DNA from: Candidatus Latescibacterota bacterium
GTDB lineage: Bacteria; Latescibacterota; UBA2968
Assembly (NCBI GenBank): GCA_965198115.1
Contig: OZ240241.1
Coordinates: forward strand, 1,664,001 to 1,728,000
Reading direction: 5' to 3'
Length of the DNA: 64,000 bases
The notes beneath the pieces were generated by a model, which worked only from the letters and a program-made list of their open reading frames with translations, did not search any database and was not told the origin of the DNA. Below are positions 1-61,825 of the stretch, piece after piece (position 1 is the stretch's first letter; every line of letters starts with the position of its first letter). Made by a program: the position numbers and the translations under genes.

Positions 1-537
1 CCTCTTGACGATCCACCCGTCCGGACAGGGCGGAAACGCAAGCGACTCGTGGTCGTCCCCAGGCACCTCGACCCCGAGCACCTCCAACACCGACGTTGAT
101 AAGGGCCCCTGTATGCCAAGAACGGACCAGGATTCGGACACATCTTCGATCGAAACATCGTCACCGATCAGATAGCGATCGAGAAACGCCGCCGCGGACG
201 TGTGCAGATCCGGTTCGAACTCCAAAAACATCGCTTCCCCGCGGTTGTAGAGGTGCAGGTCGGCCTGCGTGTTTCCCTTTGGGTCCGTCAATGCCGTGTG
301 ATTGCCCTTACCTGGCTGGACGTCTTCGACCGTGTTCGTGAGCATTCCGTGGAGGAACCTGGCGCGATCGGCTCCCGTCACACGCAGTTTTCCGCGCGCA
401 CTCCGGTCGATCAGCGCCGCATTGCTCCGAATCGCCTCGTACTCGGCCGCCGCATCCCCATAGTCCACGGCGACCTCACGCCCCTCGATCGTTTCGAAAC
501 TGCCTTGTGCCTGAACCTCGCGCAGCCCCATGCTCAT
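1..537 (-). CDS. Aminomethyltransferase folate-binding protein (GcvT/YgfZ family), 3' end outside window
   Basis: Not in the ORF track because it runs off the edge. Manual translation from ATG 537 (RBS AAGGAG): MSMGLREVQAQGSFETIEGREVAVDYGDAAAEYEAIRSNAALIDRSARGKLRVTGADRARFLHGMLTN...DVSESWSVLGIQGP, the typical GcvT/YgfZ N-terminus. Confidence 0.85.
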   Translation of the reverse strand, partial: MSMGLREVQAQGSFETIEGREVAVDYGDAAAEYEAIRSNAALIDRSARGKLRVTGADRARFLHGMLTNTVEDVQPGKGNHTALTDPKGNTQADLHLYNRGEAMFLEFEPDLHTSAAAFLDRYLIGDDVSIEDVSESWSVLGIQGPLSTSVLEVLGVEVPGDDHESLAFPPCPDGWIVKR

Positions 538-42835: not shown

Positions 42836-42912
42836 TCAGAGCCTCCCGTGATCACCATTTTTGACAAAACGTGTGGAACGCGCTCGGTCAAGCCCCTATC
42901 TTCTCAGACATC

Positions 42913-43797
42913 ATGCCCGGCGGAAACGAAATTCCACACGATCTCATCTCAGACTACGCACAATGTCGGGAAATCACCACGACTCACTACGAAAACTTTC
43001 CCGTCGGGTCTCTGCTTCTTCCATCCCACATCCGTCCCCACGTTTACAGCATCTACGCCTTTGCTCGGACGGCCGATGACTTAGCCGACGAGCCGGGCCT
43101 GAAGAAGGAGGAACGGCTCGTTCGCCTGGACGAATGGGCCCGCAGACTGGACACCGTATCAACCTCGCCCGAGGGTCCCATCTTCCGGGCCCTCGGCCAC
43201 ACGCTGCAGATGCACCCGATTCCCCTTCGATTGTTGTCCGACCTGCTAGGGGCGTTCCGCCAGGATGTCTTGCAGGATCGGCACGAAACGTGGGGTGACC
43301 TTCTGGCCTACGCCGAGCGCTCGGCAAACCCGGTGGGGCGGATCATTCTCCACCTGTTCGGGTATCACGACGAGGAAAGAGCCGCCCTTTCGGACAAGAT
43401 CTGTACGGCACTGCAGTTCGCCAACTTCTGGCAGGATGTGGCTGTCGATTTCGACCGCAACCGGGTCTATTTGCCCCAGCAAGAGATGGTCGCCCACGGG
43501 GTGACCGAATCGGATCTGGCGAGCGGCAGACCGACATCGGGTTTTCGCGCGCTCCTGACGGACCTCTGCGCACGAACCAAGGTGCTGTTCGACCAGGGTG
43601 TGGCGTTGCCCGAACGCGTGCGTGGCCGTCTCAAGTATGAGCTCAGACTCACGTGGCTGGGCGGATCCACAATCCTGAGGCACATACGTCGTGCCGATTG
43701 CGACATCTTCGGGCGGAGACCCCGAATCGGTCGGACCCTCACCATCCGTCTATTGATCAAAAGCCTTCGGCCCCTCCGCGTGACGAGGACGGTGTGA
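42913..43797 (+). CDS. hpnC: Squalene synthase HpnC
   Basis: HYENFPVGS, YAFARTADDLADE, AFRQDV, SANPVGR, ICTALQFANFWQD. Confidence 0.93.
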   Translation: MPGGNEIPHDLISDYAQCREITTTHYENFPVGSLLLPSHIRPHVYSIYAFARTADDLADEPGLKKEERLVRLDEWARRLDTVSTSPEGPIFRALGHTLQMHPIPLRLLSDLLGAFRQDVLQDRHETWGDLLAYAERSANPVGRIILHLFGYHDEERAALSDKICTALQFANFWQDVAVDFDRNRVYLPQQEMVAHGVTESDLASGRPTSGFRALLTDLCARTKVLFDQGVALPERVRGRLKYELRLTWLGGSTILRHIRRADCDIFGRRPRIGRTLTIRLLIKSLRPLRVTRTV

Positions 43798-44639
43798 GCG
43801 TCGGGGGCCACGCCTCGAAGGTCGTCCGTAGGGCGAGATCGAACTTTTTCTGGGCGTTCGTCTTCCTCGATAGACCCCGTAGAGACGCTATCTTCAGCGC
43901 ATATGCCTTCGCAAGACACACGGACGATCTGGTCGACGAAGCGCAGTCGGCAGACGACGCCCGCCGGAATTTGGACCGGTGGCGCACCGAACTGGATGCC
44001 TGTTACGAAGGGTCGGCCACCCTCCCGATCACACGCGACCTGCACGAAACGCTCGCCCGCTTTCCGATTCCCAAGAAATACTTTCAACAGCTGGTGGATG
44101 GCGTCGAAATGGACCTGATTCACGATCGCTATCCAACATTCGAGTCACTCTATGCCTACTGCTACAGCGTGGCTTCGATCGTTGGTCTCATCTGCATCGA
44201 GATTTTCGGATACCGGAGTCCATTGACCAAAGACTATGCGGAAAGACTGGGCATTGCTCTTCAGTTGACCAACATCCTTCGCGATCTGGGTGAGGACGGA
44301 GCGCGTAATCGCATCTACCTTCCACAAAACGAGATCGAACGGTTTGGTTATTCTGAAAAGGCACTGCTGAGGGGGGATCGTACAGAGGCGTTCAACGACC
44401 TGATGCGATTTCAGGTTGCCCGTGCGCGACGCTACTACCGTGGCGCCGAACTGGCGCTATCCGACATCGACCGGCCCGCGATGTTTCCAGCGGAGACGAT
44501 GGGAACCATCTACTCCCGTCTGCTAGGCCGGATCGAGGCTGAGGAATACAATGTGTTCGAGTGGCGGGCGACCGTTCCGACGGCCGTTAAAATCGGCATC
44601 GCGCTGAAAAATTTCCTGGCGAGCAAGGTACGGCCGTGA
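43794..44639 (+). CDS. hpnD: Presqualene diphosphate synthase HpnD
   Basis: SNFFWAF, YAFARHTDDLVD, YCYSVAS, LGIALQLTNILRD, RIYLP; GTG overlaps the hpnC stop. Confidence 0.9.
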   Translation: MSVGGHASKVVRRARSNFFWAFVFLDRPRRDAIFSAYAFARHTDDLVDEAQSADDARRNLDRWRTELDACYEGSATLPITRDLHETLARFPIPKKYFQQLVDGVEMDLIHDRYPTFESLYAYCYSVASIVGLICIEIFGYRSPLTKDYAERLGIALQLTNILRDLGEDGARNRIYLPQNEIERFGYSEKALLRGDRTEAFNDLMRFQVARARRYYRGAELALSDIDRPAMFPAETMGTIYSRLLGRIEAEEYNVFEWRATVPTAVKIGIALKNFLASKVRP

Positions 44640-45937
44640 AGGTCACTGTCGTCGGCGGTGGATTCGCGGGTATGTCCGCGGCGGTAGAGCTGAGCAGACG
44701 TGGCGCGCGCGTGACGCTCCTCGAAAGTCGGAGACGTCTTGGGGGCCGCGCCTATTCCTTTCTCGATCCGGTAACGGGATCCGTCGTCGACAACGGGCAA
44801 CACGTCCTCATGAGGTGTTGCACGGCTACGCTCGAGTTCTTGAAAATTTTAGGATCCGACTCCCTCGTCACTTTTCAGGAAACCCTGGACCTGGAATTCC
44901 TCGAGGTGCCTGGGACCGCTCGTCTTCGAGCAGCGAGGCGCCTGCCGGGGCGGTTGTCACTTCTGGTCGGGCTGCTGCGATTCAGCAGCGTACCATGGTA
45001 TCAGGGGATGGCCGTGATCAGGATCGCCGCCGCACTCGATCCGCCGCCTGATGATGCGTTGTCCGTAGAAGCGTGGCTGCATTCCGCAAGGCAGCCTGAA
45101 GGACTCATCGAGCGATTCTGGGCGCCGTTGTGCATCTCCGTCATGAACCAGCGTCCTCGCACCGCTTCCGCGCGTCTGTTCGCGGCCGTCGTGCGGGAAG
45201 CTTTTGGGGCAACCGCACAGGACGGAAACCTGGGGTGGGCGACAGCGGGGCTCAGTCAGCTGCACGATCCGGTCACGGCCTACCTGCAGAGGTCCCAAGG
45301 CGACGTACACGTCGGCGCAATGGCCCGCGCCATCACCCCCGGGACCCGCCCTGCGACCGAATTGAAGTCGGGTGATCGAATCGAATCCGACGCCGTCGTC
45401 GTGGCGGTGCCGCCTCCCTCTGCGGGGCGGCTCCTGTCCATCCGAGATTTCCCGGATCTGGCTGCTCGACTGTCGCAGTTCGTCCCCTCACCAATCGTCA
45501 GCGTTAACCTGTGGACCGAACACCCGCTCGTCGATCGTCCGTTCGTCGGGTTTGTGACTGGATCGTTCGACTGGGTCTTCCGAAGAGATCTGCTACTGGG
45601 AAAAGAATCAGCCGGGAAGGGATATCATACCTGTTTGATCGCGAGCGCAGCCGACCATCTCGATAACCTGGACAATCGCAGAATCTACGAGCGCGCGTTG
45701 GAGACACTCGCCGACGCTGGCCTCTCGGTGGGGAAGGGCGAGATCATTCACCACTCGGTCATTCGCGAACCCCGGGCGACTTATGCGCTGCCCCTGGGGG
45801 TCTCACCGATCGATCACCGAACGGAGCGGGACGGGATCGTGCTCGCCGGGGACTGGACGAATACCGGATTCCCCTGCACCATCGAAGGAGCCATTCGCAG
45901 CGGTCGAATGGCGGCAGATGCCCTCGCGGATCGCTGA
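44636..45937 (+). CDS. hpnE: Hydroxysqualene dehydroxylase HpnE
   Basis: VVGGGFAGMSAA, LGGRAYS, DNGQHVL, EPRAT, AGDWTNTGFPCTIEGAIRSG. Confidence 0.92.
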   Translation: MKVTVVGGGFAGMSAAVELSRRGARVTLLESRRRLGGRAYSFLDPVTGSVVDNGQHVLMRCCTATLEFLKILGSDSLVTFQETLDLEFLEVPGTARLRAARRLPGRLSLLVGLLRFSSVPWYQGMAVIRIAAALDPPPDDALSVEAWLHSARQPEGLIERFWAPLCISVMNQRPRTASARLFAAVVREAFGATAQDGNLGWATAGLSQLHDPVTAYLQRSQGDVHVGAMARAITPGTRPATELKSGDRIESDAVVVAVPPPSAGRLLSIRDFPDLAARLSQFVPSPIVSVNLWTEHPLVDRPFVGFVTGSFDWVFRRDLLLGKESAGKGYHTCLIASAADHLDNLDNRRIYERALETLADAGLSVGKGEIIHHSVIREPRATYALPLGVSPIDHRTERDGIVLAGDWTNTGFPCTIEGAIRSGRMAADALADR

Positions 45938-45940
45938 CGT

Positions 45941-46324
45941 CTATCCTACGCGAAACTTTGAAATGCCCTCGGTGATGAACGTCTTCGTTTCCAGATCGAG
46001 TGCGTAGATCTCTTCGATACGATCGTCATCCAATTCGCCCGTCACCAAAGGCAGGGCATCGATCTGGTAAAACTGCTCGCCGTCAGTGGCCTGTGCGGCA
46101 AGCCGGGCGGTGCCCGTATCCCGCGCGCTGAACAGCGTGAAAAAGATCTGCGGGCTGAGTGCGTAAAGGTGGCTTCCACGACCCAGGTACTCTCCCGTTT
46201 CCTGAAGACTCAATCCCGCATTGACGAGAAGCTCCTGGTAGGCGTCGACCTCGCCTAGAACCGCAACGACGTCGTCCTTCTCCAGCACATAGACCGTGTA
46301 GCTGCCGACCTTCTTCTGTCGCAC
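45941..46324 (-). CDS. Hypothetical protein (127 aa, acidic)
   Basis: Globular composition; GAGG RBS; last gene of a co-directional run. Confidence 0.65.
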   Translation of the reverse strand: MRQKKVGSYTVYVLEKDDVVAVLGEVDAYQELLVNAGLSLQETGEYLGRGSHLYALSPQIFFTLFSARDTGTARLAAQATDGEQFYQIDALPLVTGELDDDRIEEIYALDLETKTFITEGISKFRVG

Positions 46325-46333
46325 GCGAGCCCT

Positions 46334-46735
46334 CTATCGGCCGAGATACCACGTCTCCGTCTGAGCCTGACCGAAGCGATTGATTTTCCTGATGCGGAGT
46401 CCCTCTCCCTCGTCGAGGATTTCCCCTGCGTAGCGGGAGAAGGTCAGCCACGAGTAGAACACGATCTGCGCCCCGACCTTCGTGAAAACGCCCCGATCGG
46501 AGCGAGGTGCGGCGGACCTTTGGGAAATAAACGTGACAGCTTCCCACGTCCCTTTGGCGTCTCCGATCATCTTGAGACTGCCGGAGACGAGAAGCACGTG
46601 CTCGGATCGCGCGTCGGGGTCGAACAGACGTTCGAACGTGGCAGCCTCAAGCCCGTAGACTGTGATCGTAGCCGGTTCCACCGAAGGCAGAACCAGCATC
46701 AACAGGATCAGTATGGTCGATAGGAAGTTGCGCAA
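46334..46735 (-). CDS. Hypothetical secreted protein
   Basis: Signal-like LRNFLSTILILLMLVLPSVEPA; start uncertain (46735-46798). Confidence 0.6.
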   Translation of the reverse strand: MRNFLSTILILLMLVLPSVEPATITVYGLEAATFERLFDPDARSEHVLLVSGSLKMIGDAKGTWEAVTFISQRSAAPRSDRGVFTKVGAQIVFYSWLTFSRYAGEILDEGEGLRIRKINRFGQAQTETWYLGR

Positions 46736-46779
46736 AAGGGGTCCCCCTGATCCCATCGGCATCCCGGGCGGTTTCTTGA

Positions 46780-48458
46780 TCAGAACAGACCCAGCCACGA
46801 GGGCCCGGATTCTTCCGTCGCGGGGCCCGTATCGATCCCCGACCTCGGGTCGACCCGCACATACCTTCCAGAAGCCACGACGATCTGCTCTTCCTCACCC
46901 CCGAACCGGGCGCTCACCCAGGCCGTGCCATCTTTTACACGAACCGTCGTGGCAGAACTGAGCACGACTCTGATCTCGTAAACCGCACCCTGAGAGCCCA
47001 GGATGGTGGCGAGGGGGAAGGCGACGACAATGCGTGGATCGTTAATCTTCACCCAGACCCGGCCCAACCGAATACGCAGGATCGGGTCGGCAGCGGTGCC
47101 TTCCCCCACCTTCAGTGCACTCACCGGCGCAAGCTGAGCACGCGCCTCTCCCTTTCTTACGGACAAGACGGCTTCCCCGTCCTTGCCCGTCACGATTTCT
47201 TCACCGGGCCGCACCGGCTGAAAACCCAAGGGCAGGGTGTCCCCTTCTGCGTGCACGAAAACAGCACCTTTCGTAGCCTGCACGACCCCCCGGGAAGCGC
47301 TCGCGAGCGCACGCTCACCCACGGCTCGACCCGATCCGCCTACACCCGAACCCGGCTGTCGCGCGTAATCCTCGACGGCGACTCCGCCGCGGGCTGTCGA
47401 TCTTCCTCTTCCGCTCTTCGGTGAACCGAACCAGACGAGAAAGAATGACGAGATCAACAGCACACCGACACCCGCCGCGATGGTCCCGACCCTGGACCGT
47501 CGGGGCTCCTCGATTGCGATCTCGCCGGCGGTCTTCCCACGCCCCCCCTGGGAGGTTTCGGATCATCACCTTCCTCCACCGGATCATCGGCGGCCGCGAT
47601 CGATCCCAGGTAGGTCTGCACACGCCCCGCTTCGAACAGACCTCTGGCGCGCTCTAGGATCAGACGTTGAACCGTTTGGACTTTCTCGTCCTCGGTATCG
47701 CTCAAATACTCGACATCCTCCTGGAGCAACCTGGCGCGTCTCTCCGAAACGTTGACCGGCACCCGTCCCCGCAAGCGTCGCTGGAACCCACCCAGCGCCA
47801 TGGCCAGATCCCAATCGTCGACACCCGTCAGCACCACTTGCATCTCCGTGTCGGACAGTCGGTCAAGATCCTCGACCGAGAATAATCTTTCGCGCAGCTC
47901 GTCGGCGGCACCCGAATCCAGACGGTAGAGCGAGGAAAGCAATCGACGAAGGTGCGGGGCCATCACGAAAGAAGAAAGGATCACCGCACCGAATTCGGAA
48001 TCGGTCCGCCGGGAGGGGTCGCCCAGGGCAGCGTCGAGAGCGGTCACGAAGGCAGCCTCATCGTGACCGACGTGCCGTTCGAACCCATCCCACGACTGGG
48101 TACAAAGCGTGCGAATGACTTCGGACTGGAGAGCTTCGGGAAGATGTGGAAGAGTTTCTGCGGCTGCCTGCGTGGACCCGTGCAGAAAAACAATGGCGAC
48201 GAGGTCCGACACCTGTAGCGGTCGGGCCTCGACGAGCTCTCCGTCTCGGCCTCCGTCTTCGTCGAACAGTCGCGACAGATCCTGCGACAGAATCTGTTCG
48301 ACGATCGTCTGTTCGCTCCCCGGAACGGGATCGGCCTCGAGACACGCGAGTGTCGCCTCGCGCAGGTCGGCGGGGAACGCCCCCAGCATTCGGCCGCGAG
48401 CGTCGGGCCCGAGCGATCTCAACACGATCGAAAGGGCACGTGGAAGCCCGGATTCCAC
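46780..48458 (-). CDS. FliG-like / TM / FecR-like fusion protein (~559 aa), split by a 1-nt frameshift in a G7 run at 47542-47548
   Basis: ORF 47454-48458 matches FliG M/C (LFSVEDLDRLSDTEMQVVL...DLAMAL...NVSERRARLLQEDVEYL...VQRLILERAR). ORF 46780-47463 is FecR-like (GEEIVTGKDGEA, LRIRLGRVW, VRVKDGTA). G8 gives a continuous RGKTAGE...RRSRVGTIAAGVGVLLISSFFLVWF. Confidence 0.7.
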
Positions 48459-48460
48459 GC

Positions 48461-49636
48461 CTACGTGTCACCTCGGCCCAGTACGTCGATATACTTGAGC
48501 CCAGACCCGGTGTTGAACAACACGACCCGGTCATTCTCGGACAAGAACCCGGATGCTACCAGGGACTTGAGGCAGGCCAGCGTGGCACCGCCTTCGGGAG
48601 CGGGAAAGATTCCGGTGAAAGCGGCCATCTCGGTCACGCCGGCCACGAGATCATCATCCGAAACGGCGAGTGCGCACCCGCCGCTGTCGCGAATCGCCCT
48701 GAGCATCAGGAAATCGCCGACGGCGGCTGGCACCCGAAGCCCCGCTGCAAGCGTCTGCGCGTTCTCCCACGGATCGGCGTGTGTCTTTCCGCTTTCGTAC
48801 GCGCGAACGATCGGTGCGCATCCTTCGGCCTGGACCGAGATCATCTTGGGACGATGCGAGCCGATCCAACCCAATTCACCCATCTCGGCAAACGCCTTCC
48901 ACATCCCGATCAGCCCCGTACCGCCGCCCGTCGGATAGATGATCACATCGGGGAGCTCCCATCCCATTTGCTCGGCGAGCTCATACCCCATAGTCTTCTT
49001 GCCTTCGACACGGTAGGGTTCCTTCAGCGTGCTGACGTCGAACCAGCCCTCCGCCTCTTTCCGCTCGGCGACGACGCGGCCACAGTCTGAAATCAGCCCA
49101 TCGACGAGTTGGACATCCGCACCCAGTACACGGCTTTCCACGAGGTTGGCCACAGGGACGTCGCGCGGCATGAAGATGTGCGCTCTGAGGCCGGCACGAG
49201 CCGCGTAGGCGGCGGTCGCGCCTCCGGCGTTGCCTGCCGAAGGAATCGCCAGCTCCCGAGCTCCCAGTTCGGCTGCCCGAGAAACGGCGGCGGAAAGCCC
49301 GCGAGCCTTGAAGCTTCCTGTCGGATTCGTTCCCTCATCCTTGATGAACAGGTTGGGAACGCCCACCCGCTCGCCGAGTGCCCTCGTCTGCAGAAGCGGC
49401 GTAAAACCCTCGCCCAGACTGACCCTGAACCGTGGATCCTCCACGGGCATCACCTCGGCATAACGCCACATGGTCGGCTCGCGCGCGGTCAATGCATCGC
49501 GGTCGAGGGAAGATCGGACTTTTTCCAGATCGTATCGGGCGAACAGGGGAACTCCCTCGTCCGAAAGGTTCTGCAATCGATCTTTCGAATAGGACCGGGC
49601 GGTCTTGGTACAGATCAGATCCACGAGGAAAGACAT
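48461..49636 (-). CDS. thrC: Threonine synthase
   Basis: SLGEGFTPL, KDEGTNPTGSFKARG, PSAGNAG, EGKKTMG, YPTGGGTG, FNTGSGLKY. Confidence 0.93.
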   Translation of the reverse strand: MSFLVDLICTKTARSYSKDRLQNLSDEGVPLFARYDLEKVRSSLDRDALTAREPTMWRYAEVMPVEDPRFRVSLGEGFTPLLQTRALGERVGVPNLFIKDEGTNPTGSFKARGLSAAVSRAAELGARELAIPSAGNAGGATAAYAARAGLRAHIFMPRDVPVANLVESRVLGADVQLVDGLISDCGRVVAERKEAEGWFDVSTLKEPYRVEGKKTMGYELAEQMGWELPDVIIYPTGGGTGLIGMWKAFAEMGELGWIGSHRPKMISVQAEGCAPIVRAYESGKTHADPWENAQTLAAGLRVPAAVGDFLMLRAIRDSGGCALAVSDDDLVAGVTEMAAFTGIFPAPEGGATLACLKSLVASGFLSENDRVVLFNTGSGLKYIDVLGRGDT

Positions 49637-50463
49637 AAAATTCTCCGGGGCGGTCTCTCGAACAGAGGGGCCCTATGATGTCCCGGACACGCGGAATAGT
49701 CAAGACGTGCCGGTTGGAGAAAGGGGCAAATCGATCCCGTAATCACGCATCTTCCGTCGCAAGGTCGGTCGCGTGATGCCTAAAAGCTCGCAGACCTTTG
49801 CCACGGTTCCACCCGGCGAGGCAGAGGGCCTCGCGAATGTGCTGGCGCTCGACGTCCTGCAGGGAGGGCACCCCCGTCGCCTGCCCACCCTCGACCGATC
49901 CGAGCAGGATGTCTTCTGGCTCGATCACGTTGCCCCGGCACGAGAGGGCGCCCCGAGTCAGTACGTTTTGCAGTTCCCGAACGTTCCCCGGCCACGGCGA
50001 CCCCATCAGATGTATCATCGCATCGTCGCTGATGCTCACCGATCCCACGCCGACGCGGGACCCGATACGTGTCAACAGACGCGTCACGAGTGTGGGAATG
50101 TCGTCCCGGCGTTCTGCGAGCGAGGACAGACGAACGGTGACTTCGGCCAGTCGGTAATACAGATCGGCGCGGAATCCTCCGTCGGCTACCAGGGCCTCCA
50201 GCTCCCGATTGGTCGCTGCCACGAGTCGAAGATCCGGACGTACCAGATCCCGTCCCCCGACGCGGTAGAACTCTCCGCGGTCGAGCGCTTCGCAGCAGTT
50301 TGGCCTGCAGACTGAGCGGGGCGTCCCCGATCTCGTCCAGAAACAGCGTACCCCGATCGGCCAGCTCGAAACATCTCTTTCGTCTGTCCGTCGCACCCGT
50401 GAAGGCGCCTCGTTCGTGACCGAACAGTTCGCTTTCGGCCAGGGACTCCATCACGGCCGCGCA

Positions 50464-51105
50464 GTCATGACCTCCGGCAAAGCCGGAGGCTTGAAAACTT
50501 GTGAACCGCTCAAAGCGGTTGGAAACCAAGCGCCACCTAAAGGTGGCGATTACCTGAAAATGTTGAGCTGGTCGAGACTCAGGTCCTCCCGCTCCTGGTT
50601 CTGGATATACTCCCGAACCGTCTGTTCATCCTTGCCAACGGTGGAGACCCAGTAGCCTCTTGCCCAGAAATGCTGCCCGGTGAAGTTCGACCTAACCTAC
50701 GTCCCAGATAGTTCCGAGCAATGTGAATCGCACTCTTTCCTTTGATGAACCCTACCGTCTGAGCTACTGAGTGCTTCGGCGGGATCGAAATCAACGTGTG
50801 CACATGGTCGGATCGCAGGTGACCCTCTTCCACACGGCATTCCTTCTGTGCGGCCAGATCCCGAATCACCTCGCCCAGATAGCGACGAATTTCACCATAC
50901 AACACTTTTCTACGATACTTCCGAACCCAAACAACGTCATACTTGCACTCCCAAACCGTGTGACGTAGACTCCTTACGTTGTTCATTAGAGAGCCTTCCT
51001 TCCGTGTGCTTTGAGCGGTCCACGGCAAGGGAGGCTCTTACATATTTCTGGAACTGTCAAACTCTGGGAGTCTCCCCGGCAGAGCCGGGGGCTTACCAAG
51101 GTTTA
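50464..51105 (-). mobile_element. IS200/IS605 family element, tnpA-only (IS200-like), 642 bp
   Basis: Subterminal hairpins CCCCGGC-TCT-GCCGGGG and CCTCCGGC-TTT-GCCGGAGG; inserted 3' of TTAAC; ends in TGAC; no target duplication; removal restores GTT AAC TGC (VNC). Confidence 0.93.
50550..50986 (-). pseudogene. tnpA: IS200 Y1 (HUH) transposase, frameshifted by a 5-bp duplication
   Basis: HTVWECKY, KYRRK, DHVH, IKGKS, then in the shifted frame FWARGYWVSTVG...EYIQNQ; ACCTA ACCTA duplication at 50690-50699. Confidence 0.9.
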
Positions 51106-51717
51106 GTTAACGGCGACGAACGGCCCCGGCCGACCCGAAGCTGCGTGAATCGATCGGGCAAGCAACTCCTTACCCGTGCCGCTCTGCCCTCGAATGAAGA
51201 TATTGGCGCCTGTCGGCGCGGTCGCCGCTGCCGTGCGGTAGGCTCGAATCATGTCCGGGTTTCCGCCCACCACGACGTCCGCCCTCGGAAACGCCGTTTC
51301 GACACCGTCCATCCGCACACGTCGCCGATTGACACAAGGCAGCCTGGACAATGTCATTTTGAGCGCCGTCAGGGACAGAGGTTTGGAAAGACAATCGAAC
51401 GCACCCGTACCGATCGCTTCGAAGACCGTGTCGGAGGTATAGGCTGCGCTGAAGACCGCGACCGGGATCGACGGAATATGGGCCGACCCCAGCCGAATCA
51501 CGTCACGCGCATCACCGTCGGGCAGCACCACTTCGGTCAGAACCAGATCAGGAGGACGATTGCGAATCGCTTCTCGCGCTTTTTTGACCGTCGACGAGCG
51601 CATCAGCAAGAGACGGTCGTCGTCGGGAAACGGATCGGCGGACTGCGAGTCGACGATGAGTACGTGTGGCATCAGGGCCTCCTGGGTTTGAATTTTTTCA
51701 GGTCGGGTTCCTCATAG

Positions 51718-51897: not shown

Positions 51898-54462
51898 CTA
51901 AGGAACAGCCACGGTCTGTTCTTCCGATGAATCCCCGAAGCTGCTGCCGAGACGGGCCACGATCCGGTAGACGTAGACCCTGCCCGACAGCACCGTCGTG
52001 TCCACGTAGGTCGTGGTCTGCAGCCCTGTTGCAACCGTGATGAAGGTCCCCGATGACGAGTCCGACCCGGGTTCTTTGCGCTGAACGCTGAAAGAGTCGA
52101 ACGACCCGACGGCGCTCCAGGTCAGCGTGACGTCGGGCGTGGCCGTCGCCTGTGCCTGGACGTTCGTAGGCACCAGGATACCCGTGCCCAGAGCCGTCCT
52201 CGACACGGAACTCGACAGATCGCTCTCGTTGCTGTCCCCGTCCAGGGCGCTGACGCGGTAGATGTAAGTCGACCCGGTCGTCAGCCCCTCGTCGACATAG
52301 GTGGTCGACGACACCTCGGCGACTTGAATGAGTCCCGACGCTTCCGTCTCGAGTGCCCGATAGACGCGATAGGTGGCCAACCCGGTCAAATCCGAGCCGC
52401 CCGTATCCGTCTTCGGCGAGGTCCACGAAACCGAAATCGAGGTGCTGCTGGGACTTTCCAAAACGATCTGCGTCGGCGTGGCCGGCGCTCGATCATCCAG
52501 GGGAACCTGGGCAGAAACGAACAGGGACAGCTCGCTTTCCAGTCCTCCCAACCCGAGTGCCTGCACCCTGTAAACCACCGTGTCTCCTGGTGTGAGGGGC
52601 GAATCGACGTAAGTTGTTTGGATCGTCGAAAAAGTGCCCTGAGCCGCCGCATCGGCGGGATCTGCGAAACGCAAGACCCTGTAGCCGGTCAGTTCCGCTT
52701 CGGTGTTGGCCGACCAGCTTACCGTCACACGCGCGATGTCGGGCGTGGCAGTAACGTTCGTTGGCGCTTCGAGCTGGGAGGCGACCGTGCCCGAAACGAA
52801 CGCACTCGGCTCGCTCTCCAAGCCACCTGTCGCGATCGCCACGACGCGGTAGACAAAGGTCGCACCCGCCGTGAGAGGCGAGTCGACCAGCGTGGTCTGA
52901 ACCGTGTTGAAGGTCTGGTCGGGATCGGTGTCGTTCGGGTCGAGGAACCGTTTGACCTCGTAGCCCGTCAATTCGGGTTCACTGTTGGCTCTCCACGTGA
53001 TGATCAGTTGCTGCGGCCCCGCCTCGACTGCAACACCCGTGGGCCGGCTGACGCCGCGAGTCGTCACGGATGAGCCGCTCGACCTGGGGCCCACGTTTCC
53101 GACCACGTCGACCGCACTGATCGCGTAGAAATATCGCGTCAGCTGGGCCACGGTCGTGTCTTCGTAGGTCTCCTGCAACACATCGACCTCAGCCAACAGA
53201 ACGAACGAGCTTGCCGACTCACGCGACCTGAAGATGCGGTAGCCTGCGAGTCCCGTGATGTCATCGCCGTCGCTGTCGGTTGTGGGTGCCGTCCACGTCA
53301 ACGACACGAGTCGCAGGTCGGTTTCGCTCAAGCTGACGATGACATCGGAGGGCGCTGCAGGGGGCGTCTCGTCCGATGTAGCGACACCGTCGACGAAAGT
53401 AGAGGCGGGGCTTCTGCGCAGACCCAACTGTGGATCATCGGCCACTGCCTGGATCTTGTAGAAATAGACCTGATCGGCGACGAGGTTGCTGTCGACGTAG
53501 GTCGTGAGTGCCGTCGTAAACAGTGTATCCGAAGTCACCGGCAAGAAGGTCGCCTGCGTGTCCGTCGCTCGAAGGATGAGATACCCGATCAGACTCGGAT
53601 CGTTCACGGCAGTCCAGCTGATGTCGATCGCATCGATGCCCGACGTGGTCTGGATGTTGACCGGTGTCTGGAGACCCGTATTGCCCGTCGTGATGGACGC
53701 CGACGTCGAGCGTCCACTCTCGTTCGTATCGCCATCGACCGCGCTCACGCGGTAGAAATACTGGGACCCGACCACCAACCCCGCTGAATCGATAAAAGCC
53801 GTCGCGGTGGAGGCGACCTCGGCAATCTGAACGAAGGCGTCCTGAGAGTCCTGCGATCGGAATACTCGATAGGTCTCAAGACCCGTGAGGGGAAGACTGT
53901 TCGCGTCACTCAGGGGCGCGTTCCAGGTGAGCGTCACATATCCCGTGGAAGCATCGGCGACCGCCGAAAGATCCGTGGGCTGGCCGGGAGGACGGCTGTC
54001 GTCCTGCGCCTCCGCATTCACGAAAACGGACAGTTCGCTCTGCCGATCGACGACATCGACGGTAGACAGCCGGTAGAAGTAGACCTTGGCCACCGACAGA
54101 TCCACCGTCGAATCCACGAAGGTCGTCCGAGCCGTGGAGATGAGCGTATCGGCGTCTTCACCACTCAGACGAACATATCCCTCCGTCGCGACTGTCGACC
54201 GCCAGATACCGTAGCCCTTCAAATCGTTGCTGACGACGGCGTTCCACTGTAGCTGAATCCTTCCAATGTCTCCCACCGCTCGAATGTTCGTGGGCGGGCT
54301 CAGAGCCTCATTTCCGGAAAAGTTGGGATCGATGGGGTTGGTTCGCTCTCGACCGCACGCAACGATCAACAGAACCAACGCAACCGTGCAAAAGCGGCCG
54401 ACACGCTGCCGCCAGGAGTGCGTCATCTTCATCTCCCCGAATCGGATAGCGGAGGTCGTCAT
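51898..54462 (-). CDS. Large fibronectin type III repeat lipoprotein (about 8 FN3 domains)
   Basis: Lipobox LIVAC then NPIDP; repeated P..P.....L.W....L.GY...R....D.......Y.Y.V.A.D..GNES. Confidence 0.88.
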   Translation of the reverse strand: MTTSAIRFGEMKMTHSWRQRVGRFCTVALVLLIVACGRERTNPIDPNFSGNEALSPPTNIRAVGDIGRIQLQWNAVVSNDLKGYGIWRSTVATEGYVRLSGEDADTLISTARTTFVDSTVDLSVAKVYFYRLSTVDVVDRQSELSVFVNAEAQDDSRPPGQPTDLSAVADASTGYVTLTWNAPLSDANSLPLTGLETYRVFRSQDSQDAFVQIAEVASTATAFIDSAGLVVGSQYFYRVSAVDGDTNESGRSTSASITTGNTGLQTPVNIQTTSGIDAIDISWTAVNDPSLIGYLILRATDTQATFLPVTSDTLFTTALTTYVDSNLVADQVYFYKIQAVADDPQLGLRRSPASTFVDGVATSDETPPAAPSDVIVSLSETDLRLVSLTWTAPTTDSDGDDITGLAGYRIFRSRESASSFVLLAEVDVLQETYEDTTVAQLTRYFYAISAVDVVGNVGPRSSGSSVTTRGVSRPTGVAVEAGPQQLIITWRANSEPELTGYEVKRFLDPNDTDPDQTFNTVQTTLVDSPLTAGATFVYRVVAIATGGLESEPSAFVSGTVASQLEAPTNVTATPDIARVTVSWSANTEAELTGYRVLRFADPADAAAQGTFSTIQTTYVDSPLTPGDTVVYRVQALGLGGLESELSLFVSAQVPLDDRAPATPTQIVLESPSSTSISVSWTSPKTDTGGSDLTGLATYRVYRALETEASGLIQVAEVSSTTYVDEGLTTGSTYIYRVSALDGDSNESDLSSSVSRTALGTGILVPTNVQAQATATPDVTLTWSAVGSFDSFSVQRKEPGSDSSSGTFITVATGLQTTTYVDTTVLSGRVYVYRIVARLGSSFGDSSEEQTVAVP

Positions 54463-54935
54463 CAGAACTGGCGACTCAGCGCCACCCCCAGCTGTTTATT
54501 GTAGACATCGCTGTTCAAGTTCACCGAAAAGTCTTCCTTGATCATGAGGCCGCGGTCCATCTTGGGAATGTTGTCGTCCACCCCGCTGGCCAGAAGCAGT
54601 CGCAGACCACTCACGAACATCACGACCGAAAGCCCGGCCGCCATTTGACTCTTTGTGTCTCGATCGCTCGTCCTCTTGTACAACTCCTCTGCCTCCGCCG
54701 ACGAGGCAGCGAGTAGATAGCGGTCGTAGATGTCGTCCGCGTCACTCCGGAAGTCCAGGGCGCGTTTGGCTAACAGGGCGCTTCCGCCCACGAAGAGAGC
54801 ACCGAACGTACGGCGAACCGTAAACAGAGACTCTGCGCGAACCGAAGCTGCCGCCGACAGATTCAGCAGACACGCTGATAGAAAAGCACAGACCCACTTA
54901 CACGAACGCATGATAGACCTTCTCCCCCCTGCCAT
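54462..54935 (-). CDS. Hypothetical exported/membrane protein coupled to the FN3 lipoprotein gene
   Basis: Signal-like N-terminus, two hydrophobic helices around a DIYDRY segment, terminal LGVALSRQF; likely start near 54911. Confidence 0.6.
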   Translation of the reverse strand: MAGGRRSIMRSCKWVCAFLSACLLNLSAAASVRAESLFTVRRTFGALFVGGSALLAKRALDFRSDADDIYDRYLLAASSAEAEELYKRTSDRDTKSQMAAGLSVVMFVSGLRLLLASGVDDNIPKMDRGLMIKEDFSVNLNSDVYNKQLGVALSRQF

Positions 54936-55153
54936 GAAGGCAGCGCAGGTGGCTAAACTCGGTCAGGTTAGACACGGTATCCGACTTGCGGGTTTCGCGA
55001 GAATACGTCGAACAGAGGACGTCGCGCGAGGCGTCAACCCTTGTGTGGGAGGGGAGTGCGGCGGATTGAGCGTCGGAACGGGAGGAACGTCTAAACATAG
55101 ACCATGCCTCTTCCAAAGGCAACGAAGACGTGCCTGAATTCGACGACCGTAGA

Positions 55154-55915
55154 TCACGCGTCAGGCCCCCTCACGACGCGTATGCCGGCGGCGTAGTCGG
55201 CAAGGGTTCGACCGTTCCGATCGACGAATACCCACAGCGCCCCCACCCCGAGCGTCACCGGATAAACCAAGTAGGCGACAACGATCCTGATGACGTTTCG
55301 AAGCATGCTTGGAGCCTTTCCTGCCGCATCGACGAGCCTGACGCCGGCCTCCTTCAACCCCACCGAAGATCCTGTCCTCGCCCATTGCGGCGCGACGATC
55401 AGAATGCGGTAGACGACGAGAGCCCCGTAGTAGGGTCCGTAGTCTTGAACCGCACCGAGCAGCCTTTCGGGATCGGTGAAGAAGTCCACGGCCTGATCGA
55501 GGAAGGCGGGCTCATCCGGTGGTCGCCCACGACCTCTTCCCCGGCCTCCCCCGCCCCGTCTGGGTCCACGACCGCCGCCTTCGTTCGCCCCGCCGCCGAC
55601 TGATATGACACCGGCTCCTGCAAGAATCAGACCGATGATTCCCGCAGGCAGCAGAGAAACAAACAGGTCGACGGCGCTCCCCCAAAGCCGACGCAAACCC
55701 GATGGCGCGTCTGACGATTCAGACGATGGGACCGTGACTTCGTCCAGGCGGTCGAGCCGCGATCGAATCTCCGACTGCACCAAACGGAATCGGTCTGGAT
55801 ACGATTCCCGGTCGAGGTGCGCGAACACGTCCTCGAGCTGATCGAGGCTGTAGCCCCGAATGAGCGTCTCGAACGCACGTTCCTCATCGACAGCTTCGCG
55901 CGTCTCTTCCATCAC
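55154..55915 (-). CDS. RDD family membrane protein
   Basis: RRLWGSAVD, GLK..G.R.V, RTLADYAAGIRVV. Confidence 0.8.
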   Translation of the reverse strand: MMEETREAVDEERAFETLIRGYSLDQLEDVFAHLDRESYPDRFRLVQSEIRSRLDRLDEVTVPSSESSDAPSGLRRLWGSAVDLFVSLLPAGIIGLILAGAGVISVGGGANEGGGRGPRRGGGGRGRGRGRPPDEPAFLDQAVDFFTDPERLLGAVQDYGPYYGALVVYRILIVAPQWARTGSSVGLKEAGVRLVDAAGKAPSMLRNVIRIVVAYLVYPVTLGVGALWVFVDRNGRTLADYAAGIRVVRGPDA

Positions 55916-58900
55916 GGCTTCCGGTCCGAGAGCGAGTAGATCGTCGGAATCAACACGAGGGTCACGAACGTGGAAAGCACCAGCCCGCCGATGACGGTGA
56001 TTGCCATGGGTGCCCGAATCTCTGCCCCCTGGCCGATCGGGAACACGACATTCAGCATCCCGATGGCCGTCGTGTGGATGAGCGCGGGCAAAACGGTGCC
56101 GAACGTCCGGTCGAACGCATCGACGATGGGCCTCAGGTTGAAGATTCCCAACGCCATGGGCAGGAGACCCAGCACCGTCGTCGACGTCGTCATGAGAATC
56201 GGTCGGAGTCGGACCCGACAGGCCTGCTCGATGGCCTCCAGCTTGGGGATGTGCTGCTCTCGCCGGAGGGTGTTGATGTAATCGATCAACACGATCGCAT
56301 TGTTAACGACGATGCCGGCAAGCATGATGAGCCCGATCAGAACCACGACGCTCACAGATTGTCCCGTCGCCAACAAAATCAGAATCACACCGACCAGACC
56401 AAAGGGGATGGAGAACATGATCACGAACGGATGCACCAACGATTCGAACTGCGATGCCATCACCAGATAGACGAGAAAGATGGCCAGCCCGATCGCCAAC
56501 CGCATGCTTTCGAACGATCGCTCCCGTTCTTCGTTCTGCCCGCCCACGCGGATGTTGTAATCGCTTGGGTAGGCCATGGCCGATAGCTCATCCTCGATAT
56601 CCCGTACAGCCTCACTCAGGTCTCGGCCTTCGAGGTTGGCCGAGACGATCGCCACGCGCTCCTGGTCGATGCGACGTATTTCGGCCGGTCCCATTTCGAC
56701 CTGTAGATCGGCGACCACCGCCAACGGGATCGGCGTCTGCGCACTCGCCGGGCTGATGATCAGTCGTCGAAGATCGTCGACCGTGCTCCTGTGCTCCTCG
56801 GACGCGCGAACGCGGATATCCACACGACGGTCGCCCCGGGTGAACTCCGTGGCCACTTCACCCTGCACCTGATTCCGAATGATCTGCCCGATCGAGAAGA
56901 TCGTCGTTCCCAGCTGGGCGACGCGTTTTCGGTTGAAACGGATCTGGACCTCTGGGTTCCCGCCTGCGGCACTCGTCTTCAAATCGGCGAGACCATCGAT
57001 TCCTTCGATTCGGTCTACGACCTCGTCCGACAACGTTCTGAGCGTCGCGAGATTGTATCCCGATACCTCCACCTCGATCGGCGTCTTCGACGAAAAGAGC
57101 GACGGCCGCGAGAACTTGCACTCGACGGATGGAAAGTCGGCCAGCGCAAGACGTAGCCGCTCCATCACCGCCTCCTCCTTGTCGCGTATCACCCCTTCGG
57201 CCAGCGCAACGTTGATCTGCGCGATGTTCTCCCGCTCTTCGGCCGATGACCCACCCGACGAGGTGCTCGATCCGACAATGCTGTAAACGGTCGTGACCTG
57301 GGGCTCCGCACGAATCGCCCGCTCGAGATCCCGTACCACCGCCTCCGTCAACGCCAGGGGTGTGCCGACCGGCATTTCGACCGCGATGATGAACTCGCCC
57401 TGGCTCATTTCGGGGATCAGCTCGCTTCCGAGAAATCGCACGAGACCCCCCGATGCCCCCAGAAACCCGATGGCGATCAGGATGACCACGAGTCGATGCC
57501 GCAGAGCCCAGTGGATGATGCGCGGGTAGATCGCATAGGCACGATCCATGATCATGTTGAACACGAAGAAAAACGGCGTCAGAAGCTTGAGCGCCCCTCG
57601 ACCGATGGCCGACAGCGTCCGACCGAACAGCGCGACGATTCGGGGAGCCGTCTTTCCTCGTTCATCCCCCGCAGCACGGCGCCGGCGCTCGACCTCTGCC
57701 ATTTCCGACATCCACCTGAATTCTAGAGAGGCCAGCATGGGAATAAGGGTCAGGGCGACGAGCAGAGAGGCGACGAGGGAGAAAGTCACCGTCAACGCCT
57801 GATCTCGAAACAGCTGGCCCGCGATCCCCTCGACGAACACGATCGGCACGAACACGCAAATCGTCGTCATCGTCGCAGCGATCACGGCCTGCCCGACTTC
57901 GCTCGCGCCAGTGTTCGTCGCCTCCAGTGCGTCCTTACCCTCTTCTCGGTGGCGCTGGACATTCTCGAGCACGACGATCGAGTTGTCGACGAGCATGCCG
58001 ATTCCGAGCGCCAACCCACCGAGTGACATGATGTTCAGACTGACCTCGGACACGAACATCAGGAAGAACGTCGCCACGACGGAAATGGGAATCGACAGAC
58101 TGATGATGGCCGTGCTCTTGGGGTTTCGCAAAAACAAATAGAGAATGATGATGGCCAGGAAGCCTCCCATGACCGCCGTGTTGAGAACCTCGGACACGGA
58201 CTCCCGGATGAAGACGGACTGGTCGAACACCACCTCCACGCGCGACATACCCAGCAGGGCGTCCCCGTCTTTTCGAAACTCCGCCAGAGCCTCGTGAACA
58301 CGCTGGGCGACGGTTACCGTGTTGGCGTCCCCCTCCTTGTAGACGGCGAGCTCAACGCTCTCCTGGCCGTTGATGCGCGTGATCACCTGGCGTTCTCGGT
58401 GACCCCGCTTGACCTGCCCGACGTCGCTGAGTGTGATGATCGCGCCGTCCCGGTCCCCCACGACGATGTCCCGGATCTCTTCGACCGACTTGAACTCATT
58501 CAGGGTTCGAACGAGGTATTCGGCCTCGCCGTCTTTCAGCTCCCCACCCGTCAGGTTCACGTTCTCCTGTCCTAGCCTCGAGACCACCTGATTCAGCGGG
58601 ATACGCAACGTCGCAAGTTTCGGCCCGTCCACGTCGATGTGGATTTCTTCCTCGAGCCCGCCGTTCACACGGACGGCCGCCACGCCCTCCAGGCTTTCTA
58701 ACTCCGATTTCAGGTGCTCCTCACCCAGCAGACGCAGTGCGATCAGGCTCTCTTCGCCATACAGACCGATCCGAATGATGGGATCGAGCGATGGATCGAA
58801 TCGAAGGAGAACGGGCTTGTCGACATCCTGGGGCAGCTGAAGACGGTCGAGCTTTTCCCGAATATTCAGGGAAGCGAAATCCATGTCGGTGCCCCAGGCG

Positions 58901-59184
58901 AACTCGACGACCACGTCCGAAACGCCAGGACGCGCGGTCGAACTCACCCGGATGACGTTCGTCACGACCCCCACAGCCCCTTCTACGGGTTCCGTAATGA
59001 GCCGTTCGATTTCGGAAGGTGCCGCGCCCTCATACTCGGTGCGGACCGTCACGGTAGGATAGGTGATGTCGGGAAGCAGGTTGATGGACAGCCGCTGGAA
59101 CGCGACCATCCCGAATATGAGCGCGGCCACGACGAACATCGTAACCGTCACTCGCCTGCGTGTGGAAAATCCGATGATCTTCAT
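55912..59184 (-). CDS. RND efflux transporter permease (AcrB/SwrC-like)
   Basis: LLPDITYP, GMLVDNSIVVLEN, LASQFES-like, GIVVNNAIVLID, RLRPILMTT; 1090 aa. Confidence 0.96.
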   Translation of the reverse strand: MKIIGFSTRRRVTVTMFVVAALIFGMVAFQRLSINLLPDITYPTVTVRTEYEGAAPSEIERLITEPVEGAVGVVTNVIRVSSTARPGVSDVVVEFAWGTDMDFASLNIREKLDRLQLPQDVDKPVLLRFDPSLDPIIRIGLYGEESLIALRLLGEEHLKSELESLEGVAAVRVNGGLEEEIHIDVDGPKLATLRIPLNQVVSRLGQENVNLTGGELKDGEAEYLVRTLNEFKSVEEIRDIVVGDRDGAIITLSDVGQVKRGHRERQVITRINGQESVELAVYKEGDANTVTVAQRVHEALAEFRKDGDALLGMSRVEVVFDQSVFIRESVSEVLNTAVMGGFLAIIILYLFLRNPKSTAIISLSIPISVVATFFLMFVSEVSLNIMSLGGLALGIGMLVDNSIVVLENVQRHREEGKDALEATNTGASEVGQAVIAATMTTICVFVPIVFVEGIAGQLFRDQALTVTFSLVASLLVALTLIPMLASLEFRWMSEMAEVERRRRAAGDERGKTAPRIVALFGRTLSAIGRGALKLLTPFFFVFNMIMDRAYAIYPRIIHWALRHRLVVILIAIGFLGASGGLVRFLGSELIPEMSQGEFIIAVEMPVGTPLALTEAVVRDLERAIRAEPQVTTVYSIVGSSTSSGGSSAEERENIAQINVALAEGVIRDKEEAVMERLRLALADFPSVECKFSRPSLFSSKTPIEVEVSGYNLATLRTLSDEVVDRIEGIDGLADLKTSAAGGNPEVQIRFNRKRVAQLGTTIFSIGQIIRNQVQGEVATEFTRGDRRVDIRVRASEEHRSTVDDLRRLIISPASAQTPIPLAVVADLQVEMGPAEIRRIDQERVAIVSANLEGRDLSEAVRDIEDELSAMAYPSDYNIRVGGQNEERERSFESMRLAIGLAIFLVYLVMASQFESLVHPFVIMFSIPFGLVGVILILLATGQSVSVVVLIGLIMLAGIVVNNAIVLIDYINTLRREQHIPKLEAIEQACRVRLRPILMTTSTTVLGLLPMALGIFNLRPIVDAFDRTFGTVLPALIHTTAIGMLNVVFPIGQGAEIRAPMAITVIGGLVLSTFVTLVLIPTIYSLSDRKP

Positions 59185-60759: not shown

Positions 60760-61170
60760 CTATTTCGCTTTTTCCTCGGTCGCGATTACAAATCTCCTGA
60801 TCCCCGACCCCTTGATCAGATCGAGAATCCGCATGACGTCTCCGTAGGGTAGTGCCCGATCCGCCCGGAGAACCAATCCGCCGCTCGCATCGACCTCGTT
60901 AGACGACGAAGTCAGAATGCCCTGGAGGACCTCCTCCGTAACAGGTTCACCATTGTAAGCCATTTTGCCATCCGAGCTGACGTTCAGGACGAAGTTCCTC
61001 TCTCGCTGAACCTGATCGGCGTTCTGCATGGAGGGCAGTTCGACCTTGAGCGCGGACTGCTCGATGAAACTGGTCGTCACCAGGAAGAAGGTCAGCAAGA
61101 GAAACAGCACATCGATTAGCGACGTGATGTTGATGTTCGGGCGTCGTCGTGCCGGGGTTTGTAGCCGCAC
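60760..61170 (-). CDS. exbD: Biopolymer transporter ExbD/TolR
   Basis: INITSLIDVLFLLLTFFLVT, LRAD. Confidence 0.92.
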   Translation of the reverse strand: MRLQTPARRRPNINITSLIDVLFLLLTFFLVTTSFIEQSALKVELPSMQNADQVQRERNFVLNVSSDGKMAYNGEPVTEEVLQGILTSSSNEVDASGGLVLRADRALPYGDVMRILDLIKGSGIRRFVIATEEKAK

Positions 61171-61172
61171 GT

Positions 61173-61814: not shown

Positions 61815-61825
61815 ACACGGTTCTC

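Follow-up and report, generated by a model that had tools for sequence, protein, structure and literature searches.

The flagellar switch is controlled by CheY. FliG is a soluble protein of about 330 aa (PF14842/PF14841/PF01706 and TIGR00207; structures 8umd, 3hjl and 1qc7) that assembles into the rotor, its N domain co-folding with the tail of FliF. It carries the residues R281 and D289, which pair genetically with E98 and R90 of MotA and matter for stator assembly, D289 being important for stator positioning according to the accessible part of the source (PMC4030992). Soluble c-di-GMP effectors adjust what the motor delivers; the available text of PMC12564702 presents YcgR, MotI/DgrA and FlgZ as accessory proteins which reduce motility through MotA/MotC, FliG or FliM. 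In Borrelia a second FliG, FliG1, is dispensable for flagellar synthesis and asymmetrically located, and the accessible portion of its report describes no membrane helix or periplasmic domain for it (PMC7225975). The FecR/PupR sigma regulators of cell-surface signalling (PF04773; 6ovm, 4m0h) join a cytoplasmic anti-sigma domain through a single helix to a periplasmic all-beta CJM domain; they are encoded beside a cognate ECF sigma gene and undergo regulated proteolysis upon a signal. In PupR, as the available sections of PMC7186176 state, the CJM subdomain spans residues 110-238 and the STN subdomain residues 250-324, receptor binding needs both, and the Gly-Thr cleavage site is non-conserved even within the FecR family. 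In VtrA/VtrC and ToxR/ToxS, a membrane protein with a cytoplasmic output is followed by the gene of a periplasmic lipocalin-like barrel (PMC9214523, accessible part). The partners of such a co-component system form an obligate heterodimer in the periplasm. This report deals with a gene of a Candidatus Latescibacterota bacterium (assembly GCA_965198115.1, contig OZ240241.1) that combines features of these systems, and that lies in a stretch of 64,000 nucleotides (positions 1,664,001 to 1,728,000), called here the window. It encodes a FliG-like part, one transmembrane (TM) helix and a FecR-type outer domain. This fusion is a real single protein across one Latescibacterota class, representing a conserved, flagellum-linked membrane protein family which is apparently undescribed; the copy in the window itself is probably a true pseudogene.

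In the window the gene is read on the minus strand in two frames. The upstream open reading frame (ORF; 48458..47454) matches the Pfam families FliG_M (aa 86-120, E 7.5e-6) and FliG_C (aa 177-280, E 7.4e-20), and the downstream frame, open from 47544 to 46780, contains a basic patch, a hydrophobic helix and a beta domain. The initial annotation had read both as one gene of about 559 aa, provided that a run of seven G were eight. The joined frames do give 559 aa, and the homolog search returned full-length single-ORF proteins of 566, 555 and 535 aa with 69-74% identity, so that the one-gene reading is not due to chance; one further homolog has 416 aa and an early stop. The placing of the break in the G run (C7 on the plus strand, 47542-47548) need not be right. 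The frameshift may sit outside the run because the linker between conserved anchors is 8 nt longer in the window than in the relative G070, which at this place reads P-Q-G-G without any homopolymer. The predicted positive-inside TM helix agrees with the basic patch and hydrophobic helix of the second frame and with hydropathy and charge in most of the family.

The family was delimited with profile searches of 168 genomes of the phylum, in which long matches were found in families f1-f4 of the window's class; the related-locus search gave one locus only, and the distribution therefore rests on the genome profile searches. One Latescibacteria locus from a named genome collection is 68% identical to the first row of the profile. 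The relatives encode a single protein of 500-610 aa with the FliG-like part, one TM helix and the FecR-type beta domain. A total of 59 full-length rows were aligned, 24 from the homolog and profile searches and 35 selected for their length among the 150 top-ranking representatives; some are near-duplicates. At E<=0.01, Pfam calls FliG_C in all 59, FliG_M in 21, FecR in 16 and FliG_N in one. After FliG_C, at a median of 42 residues downstream, 57/59 rows have a 19-residue window with hydropathy >=1.6, and the net charge is higher before the helix than after it in 44 rows (equal in 6). In databases the family is named 'hypothetical' or 'FliG C-terminal domain-containing'. A few labels from outside the phylum were met as well (Handelsmanbacteria, Gemmatimonadota).

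For the G070 protein, AlphaFold gives a model (pLDDT 84.6, pTM 0.56) in which a helical part (4-276) and a disordered linker precede a helix at 324-341, and another linker leads to a beta domain at 390-554. The helical part aligns with whole FliG (8umd_B; Z 15.4, model 2..283 on 3..324), with an rmsd of 19.2 because the domains are placed differently; its FliG_C alone fits 1qc7_B with Z 13.9 and an rmsd of 1.2 over 89 residues. Four helices at 4-65 align structurally to the N-terminus of FliG. The initial annotation of FliG N, M and C domains is thus right for M and C, which Pfam recovers, while the N domain is shortened and visible by structure only. The beta domain is closest to PupR (6ovm_R; Z 15.3, rmsd 3.1, 137 aligned residues, PupR 111..251) and to BDI_1681 (4m0h_A; Z 14.5), and E. 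coli FecR matches the outer-domain profile in a one-sequence search (E 4.9e-6). The FecR-like C-terminus that had been proposed is therefore supported by this fold search and by the Pfam calls in the family; for the C-terminal frame in the window, Pfam gives nothing below E 0.05 and does not call FecR at E<=1. The fusion lacks the STN subdomain, the protein ending at the residue aligned to PupR 251, and at the place of the Gly-Thr self-cleavage site most rows read Gly-Ala (second residue A in 33, S in 15 and T in 11 of 59). FliG_C was present in 11/11 longer proteins found with the outer-domain profile.

The likeness to FliG comprises the cytoplasmic fold, the equivalents of R281, D288 and D289, and the occurrence only alongside flagellar genes, as detailed below. 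In the profile alignment to E. coli FliG, R281 corresponds to R240, conserved in 59/59 rows, D288 to E/D247 (59/59) and D289 to E/D248 (58/59); the L-[FY]-x-F hinge is also kept. Both MotA partners, R90 and E98, are present in the MotA of G070. By comparison, the R281 equivalent is arginine in only 7/15 soluble FliG paralogs of the class, a non-random sample chosen from 19 fetched loci with long frames favoured; the fold, therefore, does not force this residue. The torque helix had been said to keep its charges, which is true for these three positions and fails for K264 and R297, whose equivalents are not conserved in the fusion family. The reported absence of the FliM-binding EHPQ motif was correct, as its positions are replaced in the family. 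Other conserved residues, R241 (59/59), Y275 (55/59) and a T-Y-x-G-S motif, are specific to the family and have no counterpart in canonical FliG.

Six shorter proteins consist only of FliG_C, the helix and the outer domain, without M domain, and all six keep the R281 equivalent. Examples of this short form are L091:6543-7643 (genome G042), one on G066:C324, and P0035, P0042, P0052, P0063 and P0065. In a FliG_C tree of 96 columns without a true root, the short-form domain nests among the soluble FliGs of the class (support 99/98), apart from the long form (100/96), which makes its own long branch. Since the FliG_C of the short forms is of other ancestry, the sequences suggest that the output resides in the torque domain by itself, and that this domain has been joined twice to the same anchor.

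The distribution of the fusion follows that of the flagellum. Of the 132 genomes of the class, 49 were taken as flagellated on the strength of a complete match to flhA or of a MotB plug, and 83 were not. A strong outer-domain match is found in 33/49 genomes with flhA or motB vs 4/83 without them, and none of these four carriers has been shown intact. Related genomes are not independent in this comparison, yet separate losses occurred in genera g6, g10, g20, g21, g23, g25 and g31. The fusion locus is empty in all 16 genomes without flagella that were inspected, five of f1/f2 and eleven of f4, all of them lacking FliG. In genus g6 the fusion is gone and thrC directly abuts hpnE (3/3 inspected), and in g10 only the 127-aa gene is left between them (2/2 inspected). 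The f4 fusion has another place, upstream of a sigma-70 gene, where a fragmented remnant is seen in G158 and the sequence is unreadable in three genomes. Broken copies were found in 4/4 readable cases without flhA and motB matches (G000, which is the window's genome, G158, G160 and G161), and fliP was not found in these four either; the copy of G044 lies in pieces on different contigs. Where flhA or motB is present, 1/33 copies is broken (G156). Co-loss with the flagellum and the kept stator-contact residues together back the link to the motor that had been proposed. As whole flagellated genera lack the fusion, it is accessory. The genomes G070 and G062 have only three and two FliG_C matches, respectively, and the fusion therefore belongs to the minimal set there. 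No CheW match was found in 14 of the 33 flagellated carriers, several genomes being incomplete. Two broader proposals were rejected: a lineage-wide flagellum without export gate or stator, since flhA and motB are present in relatives and their loss is confined to G000 and a few further genomes, and a class without chemotaxis, since CheW occurs in 25 class genomes.

The state of the window's copy is best understood together with the decay of the flagellar system in its genome. Compared with G070, G000 lacks some 11 kb of the main flagellar operon (export gate, stators and hook), starting inside fliK and ending inside flhF; the missing block holds flgD, flgE, motA, two motB, fliN, fliO, fliP, fliQ, fliR, flhB and flhA, several of these names being a reading of translations. 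The deletion stretch (G000:C1:4519800-4520280, L092) can be compared with L072/L087, and contigs of the source sample span the junction unchanged. Among the remaining flagellar genes, 7 of 17 scored are broken in G000, compared with 11 of 121 non-flagellar orthologs (p 0.002); these 121 come from 200 tested ORFs of G070, and flagellin, flgC and the fliG paralogs were left out. The broken genes include fliF, fliH, fliA, flgI, flgK and flgL. These lost and broken genes make relaxed selection the best explanation of the window's frameshift, a view held with good confidence. It is unlikely that the copy is intact in the cell and that the frameshift arose by misreading or misassembly, or reflects phase variation, along the lines of the initial annotation. 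Such a reading would fit a break at or beside a homopolymer, and the 11 non-flagellar orthologs that also look broken give a high background of 9%. Contigs of runs X1 and X2, two in number with a depth of about 9, match 45500-49000 with 0 differences and 0 gaps, G7 included; both runs derive from a single sample, which may also be the one that was assembled, and rare variants are lost from contigs. The damage to flagellar genes is nevertheless far above the background, the three other genomes without flhA and motB have broken copies too, G000 contains 357 G/C runs of seven, and no tract is conserved at the frameshift place in 22 ortholog genes. Phase variation in particular was rejected as unlikely, the break not being fixed to the G run.

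What the intact protein does must be deduced from these features. We consider, at a little less than an even chance, that it is a membrane-tethered rotor mimic which captures MotAB stators off the motor under periplasmic control. MotA is proposed as the partner because the stator-contact residues are kept, the anchor would bring FliG into the region of diffusing stators, and the outer domain is a possible entry for a signal. The helix would insert with its N-terminus inside, so that FliG would lie under the membrane on a flexible linker of about 40 residues, level with the cytoplasmic domain of MotA. Lacking EHPQ and with a shortened N domain, the fusion would be no normal subunit of the C ring. 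Its torque helix would bind MotA, compete with rotor FliG for stators and lower torque like a clutch, and the outer domain, in f1/f2 perhaps together with a secreted barrel, may alter clustering, position or stability upon an envelope or surface cue.

Several observations weigh against this proposal. The 59 rows include near-duplicates, 16/49 flagellated genomes have no strong outer-domain match, and the f4 place is empty in five flagellated genomes (G109, G148, G149, G150 and G153). The equivalents of K264 and R297 are lost, and R241, Y275 and T-Y-x-G-S might serve another partner. In most members M remains, as does a part of N; a pure decoy would need neither. G037 keeps FliG and the TM helix without the outer domain, so that sensing is not universal. 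Finally, the results would fit loading of stators as well as their removal.

The retained M domain leads to a different possibility, namely that the fusion is a minority subunit of the C ring which co-polymerises with FliG through the armadillo motifs of M and C, its helix and outer domain dragging or tethering the rotor as a brake or bias. The kept M and C domains and hinge, the alignment of the model to whole FliG and the co-loss with the flagellum agree with it, and mixed rings are plausible in a class with so many FliG paralogs (1-19 FliG_C matches per genome in 55/132 genomes; these are matches, not copy numbers). Nonetheless, we find it unlikely: EHPQ is gone, the N domain is shortened, the short forms dispense with M, and a rotating membrane helix at the rim of the ring would presumably meet the stators. 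If, on the other hand, the same surface bound MotA in order to gather stators near the motor or pole, torque would be raised. Such a stator loader or scaffold would share the residue and distribution evidence of the capture reading, and would be in line with the role of D289 in stator positioning and with the dispensable, asymmetric FliG1 of Borrelia (PMC4030992 and PMC7225975, accessible parts) as well as with two adjacent motB matches in f1/f2 genomes. Considering that none of the loci seen has the gene within a flagellar operon and that whole flagellated genera lack it, this reading is judged improbable. That the gene lies outside any flagellar cluster, as had been pointed out, is true; the trait is not special, given that fliG itself is absent from the fliF-fliH operon in G000 (G000:C1:4514968-4517388) and G070 (L087:5542-8025).

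FliG modules are widely reused in this class. A separate canonical fliG, whose presence had been left for confirmation, exists in G000 as two near-canonical stand-alone genes, among 11 FliG_C matches. The paralog types of the class are FGE-sulfatase-FliG, FliM-FliG, MotA-FliG, ECF sigma with FliG_C repeats and a MotA domain, and soluble FliG_C with a membrane-less MotA domain. The last type was found in 8 of 9 new loci examined, the ninth having the MotA part only (L160-L168; the G000 copy, G000:C1:806018-808210, L155, is split by an insertion element), and all class matches of the MotA cytoplasmic-domain profile are in FliG-bearing genomes. ECF sigma with FliG_C repeats is seen in L147 (G042), L149 (G066) and, shorter, L148 (G039), two of them with the membrane-less MotA domain. 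In P0143 a membrane MotA is joined to FliG M and C parts in one chain of 573 aa. Many FliG and FliM paralogs, FGE-sulfatase-FliG and FliM-FliG among them, lie far from flagellar operons (L097, L098, L102, L103 and L115; G000:C1:6266417-6271623 and 6603790-6607166); one distant FliM paralog has a receiver-like domain, and the R281 equivalent is lost in many distant FliG paralogs. A peptide before one of the latter may resemble the tail of FliF. A short motA-like gene (G000:C1:4608368-4608874), with TM helices and without cytoplasmic loop, lies opposite an insertion-split fliG.

These modules, together with the FecR-like layout, would suit a relay away from the motor, in which the anchored FliG holds a soluble protein with a membrane-less MotA domain and frees it on a signal, for instance to act on flagellar gene expression. 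The hybrids at 8/9 loci, the ECF sigma fusions of G042 and G066 and the restriction of the MotA-domain profile to FliG-bearing genomes speak for such a partner. The MotA cytoplasmic-domain profile, however, gave no such partner in 13 fusion-bearing genomes (G070, G062, G067-69, G043, G096, G099, G105, G110, G114, G127 and G131; several incomplete), the sole match being partial and in a MotA-sized frame, which also agrees with MotA itself as the partner, and the cleavage site is mostly Gly-Ala; the relay seems rather unlikely. Two sigma candidates were rejected as partners. The ECF sigma-FliG_C-MotA fusion is not general, with long matches only in G042, G066 and partly G039 of the 132 genomes. 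The sigma that neighbours the fusion in f4 has region 3, is not of the ECF type, and is kept in 66/76 f4 genomes including those without the fusion.

The features of the locus and its neighbours are collected in Table 1. The initial annotation described thrC upstream and two unnamed genes following, one of them secreted, all of which is correct; the last of the two is probably a bystander, as it is kept in both g10 loci without the fusion. The secreted barrel adjoins the fusion in 12/12 strong hits, is restricted to f1/f2 (absent in f3/f4) and was lost together with the fusion in g6 and g10. Its low-confidence model (pLDDT 65.5) matches small eight-stranded barrels with Z 7-11, VtrC (5kev_B, Z 7.9) and ToxS (8u2f_B, Z 7.1) being two among many similar ones, and the best ESM Atlas scores (0.84-0.87) carry lipocalin/NlpE-like names that serve as leads only. 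When the outer domain and the barrel were modelled as a complex, the score was 0.00 against a mark of 0.32; this prediction had no controls and counts neither way. The promoter/terminator scan was at chance level.

Table 1. Features of the fusion gene and its neighbours (window positions).
Feature	Position	Strand	Evidence and remarks
hpnE, convergent downstream syntenic marker	44636..45937	+	TIGR03467 above cut-off; abuts thrC in g6
127-aa protein, no Pfam/NCBIfam family, probably bystander	45941..46324	-	kept in g10 without fusion
Secreted small beta-barrel protein, candidate periplasmic co-component; true start probably ~46760	46334..46798	-	only f1, f2; low-confidence model
Predicted periplasmic FecR-type juxtamembrane beta domain (CJM), ends where FecR STN subdomain would start	46780..47286	-	structure alignment, profile
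Single predicted TM helix after basic patch; probably N-in, C-out	47428..47490	-	hydropathy, charge, model helix 324-341
Linker with frameshift, including G7 run 47542-47548; exact site not fixed	47542..47571	-	identical in contigs of runs X1, X2
Torque-helix equivalent, aa 239-251; R240, E247, D248 = E. coli R281, D288, D289	47706..47744	-	profile alignment, 59-row columns, model helix 239-251
FliG-like cytoplasmic part (short N, M without EHPQ, C) and acidic linker, first gene half	47550..48458	-	Pfam FliG_M, FliG_C; G070 model vs FliG
thrC, upstream syntenic marker	48461..49636	-	NF006050 above cut-off; neighbour conserved in f1, f2, f3

Further away in the window, exbB, exbD-like and tonB-like genes are found 12-14 kb from the fusion. 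These genes and the FecR fold of the outer domain would favour a non-flagellar role, either coupling to ExbB/TolQ or a relay from a TonB-dependent receptor, both of which had been entertained. We regard such a role as very improbable. The syntenic exbB stays in 5/5 non-flagellated genomes that lost the fusion, which speaks against coupling to ExbB-type channels; the STN subdomain, required with CJM for receptor binding in PupR (PMC7186176, accessible part), is missing; and the distribution tracks flhA/motB. The same region (51898-59184 and 60760-62710) also encodes a fibronectin-III repeat protein of 854 aa, an RDD protein and an efflux-type membrane protein beside exbB with exbD-like and tonB-like. 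At 49743-51672, upstream of thrC, an apparently broken IS200-like transposase interrupts a sigma-54-type response regulator, and the stretch 42871-45937 is a conserved neighbourhood of the hopanoid precursor pathway, with hpnE beside two genes for squalene/phytoene synthases. Elsewhere in the genome, 20 tRNA genes are arrayed on one strand within 2 kb (G000:C1:2870558-2872531).

Set against the described systems, the fusion differs from each. Unlike FliG, it has its own TM helix and outer domain, 555 aa, a TIGR00207 score of 46.5 vs a cut-off of 226.7 and its own long branch, besides the missing EHPQ, the short N domain and the two charges not kept. Unlike FecR/PupR, it has FliG in the place of the anti-sigma domain, no STN and an altered cleavage site, and no ECF sigma or receptor gene is found among its conserved neighbours. 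The brakes and clutches YcgR, MotI/DgrA and FlgZ are likely a functional analogy; they are soluble c-di-GMP-binding PilZ proteins as far as the available text of PMC12564702 goes, whereas the fusion is a FliG homolog with an anchor and outside input, and no PilZ family is among the Pfam matches of the 59 rows. The likeness to VtrA/VtrC and ToxR/ToxS is limited to f1/f2 and the pairing is putative; the output here is FliG instead of the DNA-binding domain, the periplasmic fold is of FecR type and f3/f4 lack the barrel (PMC9214523, accessible part). The architecture is therefore new, departing from every nearest family in a defining trait, and its mechanism is what we infer. Literature searches (titles and abstract openings, mostly open-access) found no described FliG-TM-FecR protein, in agreement with the initial annotation.

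More broadly, and tentatively, the fusion may be a one-protein trans-envelope switch with a rotor mimic as its output: an outside cue would act through the FecR-type domain on the tethered FliG, which would engage stators directly, bypassing chemoreceptors and CheY. It may be the most conserved piece of a class-wide system in which the torque domain of FliG and the membrane-less domain of MotA, as plug and socket, are built into sensors, into soluble hybrids and into sigma factors. If true, the periplasm would be linked directly with the site where rotor and stator touch. An anchored FliG with an extracytoplasmic domain would also be a tool to study this contact apart from the ring. The lineage itself, in which a genome can have as many as 19 FliG_C matches and modules of FliG, MotA and FliM are shuffled, bears on the reuse of motor parts.

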